Shown piece after piece: positions 23,076 through 56,101 of a stretch of 64,000 nt of DNA; within the stretch, counting starts at the first letter, position 1, and every line of letters begins with the position of its first letter. The notes below the pieces were generated by a model. It ran no database searches. It was not told the origin of the DNA and saw nothing but the letters and a program-made list of their open reading frames with translations. Made by a program: the position numbers and the translations under genes. This stretch comes from Luteibacter sp. (GTDB taxonomy: Bacteria; Pseudomonadota; Gammaproteobacteria; Xanthomonadales; Rhodanobacteraceae): assembly GCF_036500425.1 (NCBI RefSeq), contig NZ_DASYCB010000077.1, forward strand, positions 26,411 to 90,410. Direction: 5' to 3'.

Positions 23076-23187
23076 GAACGAAGAAAGCCCGCTTTGAGGG
23101 CGGGCTTTTCATCGTCAAGCGATGTAACTACTTGAATATTGGTCGGGGAGACAGGATTCGAACCTGCGACTTCTACGTCCCGAACGT
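23076..23187 (-). repeat. attL: displaced 3' 48 nt of tRNA-Pro (23140-23187) plus its downstream terminator region; left copy of the island direct repeat
   Basis: Aligns with 55989-56101. The 64-nt core 23124-23187 is identical to 56038-56101. Similarity stops exactly after ...cccgaacgt. Confidence 0.85.
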
Positions 23188-23267
23188 CAAATACAACATA
23201 GCTGCGATGCGGGTTTGCGGATATTATGTAGACTATTCCGTCCAAATTCCGTCCAACTGAGGTTCCA

Positions 23268-24302
23268 ATGGCGTCGATCTCGAAAACCGATGAAGGTACC
23301 TACCGCGTACGGGTGCGTCGTACTGGGGGCCGCCAGAGCTCCGCTACCTTCCGTACCAAGGCAGAGGCGGCGGCATGGGCGGCGCAAACTGAGAACAATA
23401 TTCACCGCCGCGTGCATCGCGACTTCCGAGTAGCCGAACGCACAACGGTCAAAGAGCTGTTGACGCGCTACGAGGGTGAGGTCGCCGCCATGATGAAGTC
23501 CGCGGCCGTACTGCATTACCACCTAGCGAGATTCATCAAGGATTTCGGTCACCTTCGGCTGTCAGGCCTTACCTCTGAGGAGCTGATCCGCTGGCGTGAT
23601 CGGCGCCTGAAGTCCGTACAGTCGGGCACGGTGCGACGGGAGTTGCAAACCCTCAGCTCCTTCTTTACATGGGTTCGCAAGGATTTATTGATCGCCCTAC
23701 CAGAGAACCCGGTGAGCTCCATTCGATTGCCGCCGGCGAGCAAGGCACGGGACAGGCGACTAGAAGAGGGCGAGGAACAGCGCCTGCTGGAAGCTCTAGC
23801 CGATCACGCAGCGCCGACGAAAGGCGAGAAGCGTGCGGGCAACTACCGCGTGGGTACGCGAAATCCTTGGGTCAAGCCGGCCGTTCAGTTCGCAATTGAA
23901 ACGGCGATGCGACTAGGGGAGTTTTCCCGATTGCTGTGGCAGAACGTTGACCTGAAACAGCAGACCGCCTTCTTGCCCGAAACGAAAAATGGCGACCCGC
24001 GCACGGTGCCGCTGTCGTCTCGCGCCGTTGCGATCTTGGAATCGTTGCCGCGGCAAGACGATGAGCCCAGGGTATTTCCGATCACCAAGAGCGCTCTCCA
24101 GCAGGCGTGGCGTCGCGCTAGGACGCGCGCGAATCTCGGCGACCTACGCCTCCACGACCAGCGGCACGAAGCTACTTCACGGCTCGCGGAAAAACTGCCT
24201 AACCTCATAGAACTGGCGAGCGTTACGGGGCACAAGGATCTGCGGCAGCTCAAACGCTACTATCATCCGCGCGCTGAGGACCTGGCAAAGAAGCTAGGGT
24301 GA
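23268..24302 (+). CDS. int: Tyrosine site-specific integrase
   Basis: 344 aa. Catalytic residue contexts AIETAMRLGEF (Arg), LHDQRHEATS (His-x-x-Arg), VTGHKDLRQLKRYYH (His...Tyr). 80 nt from attL. Confidence 0.9.
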   Translation: MASISKTDEGTYRVRVRRTGGRQSSATFRTKAEAAAWAAQTENNIHRRVHRDFRVAERTTVKELLTRYEGEVAAMMKSAAVLHYHLARFIKDFGHLRLSGLTSEELIRWRDRRLKSVQSGTVRRELQTLSSFFTWVRKDLLIALPENPVSSIRLPPASKARDRRLEEGEEQRLLEALADHAAPTKGEKRAGNYRVGTRNPWVKPAVQFAIETAMRLGEFSRLLWQNVDLKQQTAFLPETKNGDPRTVPLSSRAVAILESLPRQDDEPRVFPITKSALQQAWRRARTRANLGDLRLHDQRHEATSRLAEKLPNLIELASVTGHKDLRQLKRYYHPRAEDLAKKLG

Positions 24303-24471
24303 ATCAGTGCTCTGAGGACATATGATCGTGAAGATACTAACCATATATATGCTCGACTAAGCAATTCTTCTTATACTCACTTATACCTGTCTATATACGA
24401 GTATGCGTTATGGATGCTAACCGCAACCCCTTGGCGCACGCGCGCACCGTGCACTAGCGATCAGTCCACTA

Positions 24472-24503
24472 GACAAAAAGCAAGGGCGGCCAGTGGCCGC
24501 CCC
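24472..24503 (-). terminator. Rho-independent terminator after the adhesin gene
   Basis: Minus-sense gggcggcc-actg-ggccgccc followed by ttgcttttt. Confidence 0.75.
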
Positions 24504-24519
24504 GAAAATCCGCAGCACC

Positions 24520-54064: not shown

Positions 54065-54290
54065 AACGACCTCCTCGGTTACCAGAAATTATGGCTCCAA
54101 GGTGTCTACGAAAGTCTGGGCGGTCCATATCTCGTGTTGGGGCTCACCATCTATGCAGCTCGCTTGCGCAGTTCGCGGAGCGTTTTGAAGAGACGACTGG
54201 GACGTTCAGACCTCTCTTCTTCCGGGCTCTCACCGATTTAGATTGCAATACTCACCCGCTGCATCCATAAGACTTCGCAGGACACTGGCA

Positions 54291-55421
54291 ATGCCCCTCA
54301 TCGACGGTAACGACCTCGCCGGTCAAATGCTGGCTCATGGCATCGGCGCTATTTGTATTGACACGAGCACGTACGAGAAGAACGCCTTTGCGTTCGACAA
54401 GGGCTTATTGGCTCAGTGCCCCGGCATACGGGAGTCGGGACTTCGGCTCCTCATGGTCGACGTCGTCGAGCGGGAGGTGCGAGCTCATCTCGCGAGCAAA
54501 ACGGAAGAGCAGGTAAAGACGCTCAGGAAGGAGCTTCGCTCCGCCCGACAAAGCGGCCTAGTGGATGACGTCGCAGTTGATTTGATGGCGTTCCAGGAGT
54601 TTGACGGGTGCCGCCACGCGATAGCTCGGCTGGATGAATTCAAGGGTTCTGCGGGTGTCGAGGTCGTCGTGGTTGCAGAACATTGCGATCTACAGAGATT
54701 AGTCGACGACTACTTTTCCTCTCAGCCGCCCTTTGCAGCCAACAGCAAGAAGAAATCCGAGTTCCCTGACGCCTTGACGCTCTTAGCGCTGGAGGCGTTC
54801 GGTGATGGGATGCAGCGTGGCATCCTTGTGGTATCCGAAGATAAGGGCTGGCATGACTATGCGGCGAACAGCCGGACAGTTTTTGCCGGGCCGGATTTGG
54901 CCACGGTTCTGCGCTCGCTGCCGGACAAAGAGGATGTCCACCTGCGAGATGCGGCGCTGGCTGTGAGCGGCGATGATTTCGTCGCGTTAAAAGGCCGGAT
55001 CGAGTTCGAACTAAACGGCCTTCCTATATATGCCGAGGTTGATGCCGGTTACCCGGCTGAAGCCGAGGTTGACTCCGTAAGTCTCACATATCTCCCCGAG
55101 CCAGCAGCCGATGGCTCCGACTTCAGGGCCATTAGAATCACTGACGGGAGCCTGGTCGTAAGCTGGACGGCTCAGGCCAAGATCCATTACGACGCGAGTC
55201 TCAGCGTGAGTATTCGAGATCCAATCGATCGTGACTATGTGGATCTTCCGGGTATGTCGGTTGAGGGCGAGGAGGAAGTCGAGCTTGAAATCCTGATCAC
55301 ATTCGATAGGAGGGGGGGCGTGGCCCACCCTAGGATTACCTTTGATACGGCTGACATTGTGGAAAAGGATTTGTGGCTGGATTTGGGCTATGTCGAGTAC
55401 AGCCTGGCAGGGGAGGATTGA
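54291..55421 (+). CDS. PIN-like (DUF4935-type) domain protein, possible stand-alone defence/toxin gene
   Basis: ATG 54291. N-terminal half (ICIDTSTYEKNAF...LLMVDVVEREV...KKSEFPDALTLLALE...ILVVSEDKGW) resembles the PIN-like DUF4935 pattern from memory. Unassigned C-terminal beta-rich half. Confidence 0.55.
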   Translation: MPLIDGNDLAGQMLAHGIGAICIDTSTYEKNAFAFDKGLLAQCPGIRESGLRLLMVDVVEREVRAHLASKTEEQVKTLRKELRSARQSGLVDDVAVDLMAFQEFDGCRHAIARLDEFKGSAGVEVVVVAEHCDLQRLVDDYFSSQPPFAANSKKKSEFPDALTLLALEAFGDGMQRGILVVSEDKGWHDYAANSRTVFAGPDLATVLRSLPDKEDVHLRDAALAVSGDDFVALKGRIEFELNGLPIYAEVDAGYPAEAEVDSVSLTYLPEPAADGSDFRAIRITDGSLVVSWTAQAKIHYDASLSVSIRDPIDRDYVDLPGMSVEGEEEVELEILITFDRRGGVAHPRITFDTADIVEKDLWLDLGYVEYSLAGED

Positions 55422-55554
55422 TCTTTAGACGGCCCTGCTAACGACCGATAGGGGCATCGGCCTCGAGCAACGCGACGATCTTCCCGCCTTAACATTACCC
55501 TGCCGATCCTCGGTGCAGTATCCGATCGTCCCGCACCCACCATCGGAGATAGCC

Positions 55555-55857
55555 ATGACCACCAAGAGCCTCTACGTCGAACTGCACGCGAAGCCCGGCC
55601 GCGAAGAAGACGTCGCCGCGTTCCTCGAAAGCGCCAAAGGTCTCGTCGATGCCGAACCCGGCACCACCGCCTGGTTCGCCGTGCGTTTCGACAAGAGCAC
55701 GTTCGCCATTTTCGATGCATTCGGCGACGACGCAGGCCGCGACGCCCATCTGAACGGCAAGGTCGCCGCGGCGTTGATGGCCAATGCGAGCGAGCTGCTC
55801 GCCAGTGCGCCCCAGATCCGCAAGGCGGACGTCCTGGCCGACAAGCTGCCGGGCTGA
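55555..55857 (+). CDS. ABM (antibiotic-biosynthesis-monooxygenase-like) domain protein
   Basis: ATG 55555 with GGAG 8 nt upstream. 100 aa. LYVELHAKPGREEDVAAFL...TTAWFAVRFDKSTFAIFDAF is typical of the ferredoxin-like ABM fold family. Confidence 0.65.
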   Translation: MTTKSLYVELHAKPGREEDVAAFLESAKGLVDAEPGTTAWFAVRFDKSTFAIFDAFGDDAGRDAHLNGKVAAALMANASELLASAPQIRKADVLADKLPG

Positions 55858-55988
55858 CTGCTCCACGGTGTGAGGCACGCGCGCCGGCCGACCTGGATTC
55901 GAAGGCGCGCCCGTCCAAATTTCGTCCGAACGCGTAGACATACCGGAGATATCGCCGAGATATTCCCCGGCCATTTTCCGGCCATCTA

Positions 55989-56101
55989 GAACGAAAAAAG
56001 GTCCGCTTTGAGGGCGGACCTTTCATCGTCAAGCGACGTAACTACTTGAATATTGGTCGGGGAGACAGGATTCGAACCTGCGACTTCTACGTCCCGAACG
56101 T
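55989..56101 (-). repeat. attR: island-borne copy of the repeat (terminator region plus the 3' 48 nt that now completes tRNA-Pro)
   Basis: Aligns with 23076-23187. The hairpin arms differ by compensatory changes: aggtccgc/gcggacct here versus aagcccgc/gcgggctt at attL. Confidence 0.85.
55999..56021 (-). terminator. Terminator hairpin downstream of tRNA-Pro (possibly bidirectional, also ends the ABM gene)
   Basis: aggtccgc-tttgagg-gcggacct. In the minus sense it is followed by ttttttc. Confidence 0.7.

Follow-up and report, generated by a model that had tools for sequence, protein, structure and literature searches.

The window examined here is a stretch of 64,000 nucleotides (nt) from a soil Luteibacter sp. 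(contig NZ_DASYCB010000077.1, positions 26,411 to 90,410), and it holds a strain-specific island of 33 kb (23188-56053) that lies in the proline transfer RNA (tRNA) gene tRNA-Pro(CGG). Each border of the island displays the 3' half of this gene followed by a 16-nt spacer and an intrinsic terminator, a unit referred to as module C. On genome comparison, the right copy of module C is assigned to the element itself and the left copy to the chromosome as it was before the insertion, where it is most likely a scar left by a previous member of the element's family. A probability of about 0.65 is given to this history as a whole. The arrangement is ordinary, of a known kind, and involves no new mechanism. 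The window genome, labelled G000, is a draft of 83 contigs. The remaining G labels denote the compared genomes, G011 being Luteibacter sp. OK325 (NZ_QAOX01000004.1).

Border repeat and terminator hairpins

The features at the two borders are the following (att, attachment site).

22960..23006, unstranded: T0, a class A hairpin terminator (caccggccagtggccggtg) with the spacer gatgaaaggat; the native terminator in sister species
23000..23076, unstranded: 77-nt piece between T0 and the left module, present or absent by strain
23081..23139, minus strand: left module C copy, with the 16-nt identical spacer and the hairpin aaagcccgc/gcgggcttt
23140..23187, minus strand: displaced 3' half of tRNA-Pro (48 nt), the distal att core, identical to 56054-56101
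55995..56053, minus strand: right module C copy, with spacer and terminator aaggtccgc/gcggacctt, now 3' of the rebuilt tRNA-Pro
56054..56130, minus strand: intact tRNA-Pro(CGG) (ARAGORN), with 56054-56101 as the proximal att core and 56102-56130 as the host 5' part
from 56167, after tRNA-Pro: hisS (Pfam)

The initial annotation had described a direct repeat of ~112 nt at the island borders. The repeat finder recovers it as a pair of 107 nt (23081-23187 and 55995-56101) with 94% identity and 6 differences, beyond which a weaker similarity continues out to 23076/55989. The pair (repeat family D2) has no other long-range counterpart of comparable quality in the window. It covers the 3' 48 nt of tRNA-Pro, from the anticodon stem to CCA, and 59 nt located 3' of the gene. 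The final 64 nt, composed of the 48 nt of tRNA and the 16 nt of spacer, show no difference between the copies and, as had also been noticed, the identity ends sharply after cccgaacgt. This is followed by caaatac and the integrase gene on the left, and by agcgctc, which is the tRNA 5' half, and hisS on the right. The window thus displays the direct repeats of a tRNA 3' part, with the intact tRNA at one end, that characterize a tRNA-integrated island. The two copies of the repeat differ from each other, so they are not a collapsed duplicate, and both junctions are covered with 0 differences by the source-like run X1. The 64-nt identical block exceeds the word length of the assembler, and junction variants are therefore unphased in the contigs.

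All 6 differences fall in the 59 nt outside the tRNA, and 4 of them constitute two double changes in the hairpin that preserve the pairing (A-T to G-C and C-G to T-A). Both copies fold into a hairpin with a U-run on the tRNA strand, at -15.9 kcal/mol (left) and -17.2 kcal/mol (right). When 6 random substitutions are placed in 59 nt, at least two compensated pairs with no broken pair arise in 2.4e-4 of 1e6 trials, which upholds the compensatory nature that had been attributed to these changes. The 13 module C variants, i.e. both copies and 11 homologues, all fold (-15.9 to -24.1 kcal/mol), keep the stem pairing through G-C/A-U, C-G/U-A and G-U changes, and are all followed by UUUUUCGUU-type runs on the tRNA strand. 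Intrinsic terminators have this form, a GC-rich hairpin and then a U-run on the transcribed strand, and module C probably functions as the terminator of tRNA-Pro. The paired stem substitutions would reflect purifying selection on the terminator stem in two module copies that evolved separately.

Origin of the two module C copies

The comparison of elements relies on the integrase and on the arms that flank the att cores.

23188..23267, plus strand: integrase-side arm, with motif CGTCCAAATTCCGTCC at 23239-23254; conserved in the G011 element
23268..24302, plus strand: open reading frame (ORF) of the tyrosine integrase, 344 amino acids (Pfam Phage_integrase 3.2e-22, Int_N)
55513..55857, plus strand: gene of 114 amino acids beside the tRNA-proximal arm (phrog_6411 1.1e-39; no Pfam family; not AlpA)
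55900..55994, unstranded: tRNA-proximal arm (P'), which includes CGTCCAAATTTCGTCC at 55912-55927

The closest relative of the island integrase found (95% identical) resides in a 10.8-kb element of G011, which occupies the same target, tRNA-Pro(CGG), and shares both arms. The right end of this element is 97.8% identical to that of the island over 229 nt, including an identical aggtccgc terminator beside the intact tRNA, and the 114-amino-acid gene is 96% identical in G011 and 94% identical in G019. At the other end of the G011 element, a displaced and mutated core directly adjoins the host's own T0-type terminator and spacer, which match those of the sister species G022. The G011 repeat is thus limited to the core (~48 nt, with several mismatches) because the host terminator is of the unrelated T0 type, and the module-C terminator must have come in with the element. 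The element DNA of G000 and G011 is 90-96% identical, whereas the host flanks are only 82% identical, which points to horizontal spread. The two elements are otherwise distinct, since that of G011 has a different cargo, no relaxase or type IV coupling protein homologue, and a degraded PIN_12 gene.

The P' arm is also conserved beside module C in G019, G042 and G050, as it is in G011, and is more diverged in G070, which belongs to another genus. In G019 (3.6 kb), G050 (1.1 kb) and G042 (1.0 kb), as with the diverged arm of G070, arm and module C persist as remnants without the integrase. In total, module C is physically linked to an arm of the element family in six genomes. The aggtccgc variant occurs in three genomes (the window genome, G011 and G042), is linked to the arm in all of them, and was found in no genome as a host terminator unlinked to element DNA. 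Two module C carriers from other genera, G070 and G064, lack island proteins as well as a second core within 20 kb. Genome comparison therefore establishes the right spacer and terminator as belonging to the element, and the claim that the island's attP carries a tRNA-Pro 3' half plus terminator holds, as the right module travels with arm and integrase between species.

The displaced tRNA fragment of G011 (L015 10979-11030) is decayed, with the anticodon CGG changed to TAG, a G to A change in the T-loop and an altered discriminator. That of the window is perfect, which suggests that the window insertion is the more recent one.

The left copy is identified, from contigs of close relatives, as the tRNA-Pro terminator that the chromosome had before the insertion, and it is found in a close relative that lacks the island. 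Over 21500-22999, contigs from a near-conspecific isolate run (X2, depth 564) and from a soil metagenome (X3) are 98.5% identical to the window; in both, 22999 is joined straight to 23077-23169, which shows 0 differences, and the 77 nt in between are absent. The unitig 23141-23187 of X2 has the tRNA-Pro 5' half as its sole recorded continuation. The empty site, a proposed check on the island, is accordingly represented in X2 by 31-mer unitigs that join the left flank, module C and the tRNA core to the tRNA 5' half, and this unitig-based evidence indicates a presence/absence polymorphism with an uninterrupted target in relatives. The integrase region is uncovered in X2, and in X3 the right end of the island is covered and the integrase is not; missing cover alone is no evidence. 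X3, compared with the window at 23089-23153, also comprises, besides the flank without the 77 nt, a 16.9-kb contig that ends in the right arm and terminator of the island, with nothing at least 90% like the integrase. It can be read as a related element with a different integrase or as a mixture of two strains.

The island cargo is missing 3' of tRNA-Pro in all 24 other Luteibacter genomes for which the locus was fetched, and only G011 and G019 among them share the integrase and/or the right-end genes. A tblastn comparison with the 20 kb located 3' of tRNA-Pro in ten other genomes matched only the integrase, the 114-amino-acid gene and the degraded PIN_12 gene in G011, and the 114-amino-acid gene in G019. 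The comparison with related genomes lacking the island, another check raised by the initial annotation, consequently argues against a conserved core. The 77-nt piece is single copy in the genome; no homologue of it was found in 38 Luteibacter genomes, nor any exact 24-mer of it in metagenome contigs. Likewise, the left terminator variant has no exact 37-mer in metagenome contigs. The segment 23007-23075 was considered as a decayed tRNA-Pro copy and discarded, its best local alignment score of 16 against the tRNA being reached by 310 of 2000 shuffles.

Three unrelated sequences are found directly 3' of tRNA-Pro in these genomes: class A (T0, with a caccggcc hairpin), class B (with a ggccctgaaag hairpin) and class C (module C). 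T0 adjoins tRNA-Pro at 0-13 nt in G012, G009, G015, G007, G021, G004 and G020, and T0 variants adjoin it in G022, G010 and G023. In a tree based on 2.5 kb of conserved flank, G000 groups with G012, G007, G009, G015 and G021, all five of which have T0 at the tRNA; G007 in addition shares the left-hand gene of the window as a homologue. The window retains T0 and its spacer unaltered, separated by 133 nt (the 77-nt piece plus module C) from the displaced core. Inserted DNA has likewise come between T0 and the tRNA in G011 (10.8 kb) and G001 (3.5 kb). The persistence of T0 behind the left copy, together with T0 at the tRNA in the five nearest sister species, indicates that the resident module C is secondary. 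The view, implied by the initial annotation, of the left terminator as native to the lineage hence stands in part: it was resident before the insertion, as X2 and X3 attest, but is native only in a recent sense. An alignment of the sister-species T0 onto the window module C by MAFFT was taken as an artefact between two generic terminators and not as homology.

Of 38 Luteibacter genomes, 13 carry module C, at scattered (polyphyletic) positions on the flank tree; it occurs in only 3 of the 366 other family genomes sampled, one of which is a weak partial match. Integrases of the island's clade are far rarer: an identity above 70% is reached in 3 of 401 family genomes, namely G000, G011 and Dyella flagellata.

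Proposed history and its alternatives

In the proposed history, an earlier element of the family would have integrated at tRNA-Pro and decayed, with selection on the tRNA keeping only its tRNA half and terminator. The present integrative mobilizable island would then have entered the tRNA gene rebuilt by that predecessor, through recombination by its tyrosine integrase. The crossover probably took place in the anticodon-loop region of tRNA-Pro(CGG). The attP would bring a replacement for everything 3' of the crossover, i.e. the 48-nt tRNA 3' half, the 16-nt spacer and the terminator. On insertion, element DNA would rebuild and terminate the tRNA (right copy), and the original 3' half with the chromosomal terminator would be moved 33 kb off, beside the integrase (left copy). 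A module-C terminator would already have been in place on the recipient chromosome, which would explain why the repeat continues 59 nt beyond the tRNA.

Several observations weigh against this history. The empty site of X2 derives from 31-mer unitigs that break inside the tRNA, and no single contig spans it. The searches found no older element with the aaagcccgc variant or the 77-nt piece. Module C occurs without recognisable element DNA, and with the constant left edge aacgaa, in G013, G005, G008, G003 and G046; in G013 it stands right after the gene that T0 follows in G015, which also fits a native allele. No excisionase family was recognised in 20 small ORFs with Pfam at a relaxed threshold and PHROGs. 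Moreover, no further core copy exists between tRNA-Ser and 23140, and a scar without a second core beside T0 means that a deletion ending ~1 nt from the old tRNA end must be assumed.

It is conceivable, though rather unlikely, that module C is native to some Luteibacter lineages, including that of the window, and that an ancestor of the element captured the core with its terminator, for instance by imprecise excision at the integrase-side junction. The long repeat would then reflect the homology of the captured and the native terminator. The attP order that can be reconstructed (integrase arm, tRNA 3' half, terminator, other arm) would be the one that a capture at the distal junction gives, and both the five genomes with module C and its constant left edge free of adjoining element DNA and the residence of the left copy in an island-free close relative agree with it. 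This reading has to contend with the T0 of the nearest sister species, with the T0 that persists behind the left copy, with the polyphyly of module C on the flank tree and its scarcity outside the genus, and with the element's own variant being arm-linked in three of the three genomes that have it. Nothing was found in favour of capture from a sister taxon or, specifically, of imprecise excision, both of which the initial annotation had suggested. Capture and scar are compatible and may both have occurred, given that capture bears on where the module first came from, an event that the data leave undated.

The scar is also preferred to a course in which the resident module C arrived by ordinary homologous recombination of the hisS-tRNA-Pro segment, the three terminator classes being old, shuffled alleles. 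This course would suit the patchy distribution of all three classes over the flank tree, as well as a region between tRNA-Ser and tRNA-Pro that is a general hotspot with many inserts lacking the tRNA-Pro core repeat. It is nevertheless very unlikely. T0 is preserved with its spacer as far as the former tRNA end, so that the left crossover would have to be illegitimate, six genomes link module C physically to an arm of the element family, and the 77-nt piece has no donor among 38 genomes of the genus. Finally, the repeat might stem from chance or from a duplication in the assembly, with the 33 kb as core DNA; no support for this was found apart from the draft state of the genome in 83 contigs. 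This last reading is refuted by the uniqueness in the window of a 107-nt pair whose copies differ at 6 positions, by the tblastn comparison, in which the island ORFs mostly have no match at the locus in ten other genomes, and by the contigs of X1, which covers both junctions with 0 differences, and X2.

If the scar history is extended to the genus, the DNA located 3' of tRNA-Pro(CGG) in Luteibacter may have been overwritten repeatedly by mobile elements, and the 'native' terminators of many species may be fossils of past occupants. Every integration would exchange the tRNA 3' half and terminator for element copies, and selection on the tRNA would then maintain just this piece as the remaining element DNA decays. 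This extension is tentative, with the odds slightly on the other side; within it, module C in 13 of 38 genomes would be one such fossil and class B perhaps another in other genomes. Were it true, the attP of a later relative would match its target over 107 nt and not 48 nt, and the longer match could bias re-integration or allow an integrase-independent loss of the island by homologous recombination over the 64-nt block. The island exemplifies how a tRNA-targeting element would keep its target gene working by supplying the terminator in addition to the 3' half, and how traces of former occupants can remain beside a tRNA gene. Old scars of this type can mislead boundary callers that rely on repeat length or on 'identity blocks'.

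The position of the integrase is a genuine oddity of the island. As the initial annotation had pointed out, the gene lies at the junction distal to the intact tRNA, 33 kb away from it and 80 nt from the displaced tRNA fragment, and it reads into the island. Dyella flagellata has the same inverted layout with an integrase that is 71% identical, and its displaced core adjoins the native Dyella terminator; the contig stops 0.7 kb past the integrase, leaving the tRNA-proximal end off the contig. Distant relatives of the integrase (30-43% identity; L022-L035) follow an intact tRNA-Lys, Val, Thr or Leu on the same strand at a distance of 100-200 nt, which is the opposite of the layout in the Luteibacter/Dyella clade. 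A 16-nt motif (CGTCCAAATTYCGTCC) occurs once per arm (23239-23254 and 55912-55927) and nowhere else in the window, with 0.1 occurrences expected by chance, and may be an arm-type binding site.

Integration sites in tRNA genes are reportedly divided into sublocation classes, a scheme ascribed to Williams in 2002. The window island resembles other tRNA-targeting islands and prophages in its repeat from the anticodon stem to the tRNA 3' end, in the intact tRNA rebuilt at one junction and in its tyrosine integrase. It departs from them in the placement of its integrase gene, which faces into the island from the end remote from the intact tRNA. The tyrosine integrases of such islands and prophages target the segment of tRNA genes from the anticodon loop to the 3' end through an attP with a replacement 3' part; identity blocks of up to ~250 bp result from the replacement sequence carried by attP, and at fis the block can reach into the rho-independent terminator (PMC10111431). 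Unlike such blocks, the extension past the tRNA in the window is a diverged homologue, with 6 differences and compensatory stem changes. Integrative mobilizable elements (IME) are defined, and their evolution by integration, decay and re-integration at a rebuilt target-gene end (tandem accretion; cis-mobilizable elements, CIME) is described, in PMC5704250. The proposed history of the window matches these three steps. On the other hand, the putative remnant differs from a CIME, or from a tandem-accretion remnant keeping attL and attR, since it comprises only 59-136 nt and has no second att copy.

Island genes and the inter-tRNA hotspot

The main cargo and mobility features of the island, and the tRNA gene at the far edge of the region, are listed below.

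17414..17506, plus strand: tRNA-Ser(GCT) (ARAGORN), far edge of the variable inter-tRNA hotspot
27985..29841, minus strand: type IV coupling protein, TrwB/TraD-like (Pfam TrwB_AAD_bind 1.1e-51, TraG-D_C)
32142..35120, minus strand: TrwC-type (MOBF) relaxase-helicase, 992 amino acids (Pfam TrwC 6.4e-75, AAA_30, TraI_hel_assoc_N)
42344..53073, minus strand: defence cargo (Pfam; PADLOC DndH 7e-68, MTase_II 2.5e-79)

The integrase matches PF00589 at 3.2e-22, and the candidate motifs AMRLGE, TKNG, HDQRHE, GHKD and RYYH of its translation, assigned by eye without structural alignment, provide the catalytic R-K-H-R-H-Y set of a tyrosine recombinase. The island encodes a relaxase and a coupling protein of its own. 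Among 30 island ORFs of at least 90 amino acids and 10 smaller ones, no VirB4, VirB6 or other mating-pair formation family was detected; several of these ORFs are family-less, so that a very divergent pore is possible. These features identify an IME and not a conjugative element, and in this respect the island resembles the IMEs of PMC5704250. The VirB4-type ATPase and full type IV mating apparatus of an integrative and conjugative element were not found, the 992-amino-acid protein being a relaxase-helicase. The AlpA-like protein of the initial annotation did not hold up: PF05930 has no match at E<=0.01 in a six-frame search of the whole genome, for which an E. coli control was positive, and the small ORFs belong to no excisionase family. 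The island is accordingly no P4-type island with an AlpA excisionase/regulator. It is predicted to be mobile at present.

The defence operon encodes a C5 methyltransferase, two proteins of no family (710 and 510 amino acids) and a protein of 1848 amino acids whose DndH/DptH match is limited to the last 350 residues (C-terminal ATPase). No dnd/ssp modification genes were seen in the island. The att arms, the integrase and the empty site are now defined for an island with this unusual methylase-linked defence operon. Further island genes encode a YadA-like protein, an AAA+ protein, an HNH nuclease, AbiEi and a PIN_12 protein, in addition to a block of unassigned genes. A transposase helix-turn-helix fragment (HTH_Tnp_1, 40663-41013) without the catalytic part overlaps the start of the HNH nuclease gene region, and is a sign of earlier insertion sequence activity within the island.

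The genes for tRNA-Ser(GCT) and tRNA-Pro(CGG) are convergent in 25 of 25 Luteibacter genomes, and the gap between them varies from 132 nt (G012) to 38.5 kb (window genome). The gap, 17507-56053 in the window, is a genus-wide hotspot, and most inserts lie between tRNA-Ser and the tRNA-Pro terminator without a tRNA-Pro core repeat (loci L013-L019, L039-L055), which indicates that a second insertion mechanism also acts there. Class B (aaagaaaaaggccctgaaag...cagggcctt...cttcgaatat) stands at tRNA-Pro in L046-L050, L053 and L054, corresponding to G018, G006, G014, G017, G002, G024 and G016; it is as patchy as module C on the flank tree and is possibly the scar of a second element family. In G001 (L013 320-3760), 3.4 kb of small genes (ankyrin repeat, DUF4279, DUF6714-like) separate module C at the tRNA from a T0-like hairpin. 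This insert has no integrase and no core copy, and resembles another decayed insert.

To the left of T0 in the window, the segment 18533-20612 contains tandem paralogous small genes with internal repeats of 279 nt and 84 nt and a weak RebB (R-body) match. The final gene of this cluster, located on the left-hand side of the island and encoding 385 amino acids, has a homologue in G007.

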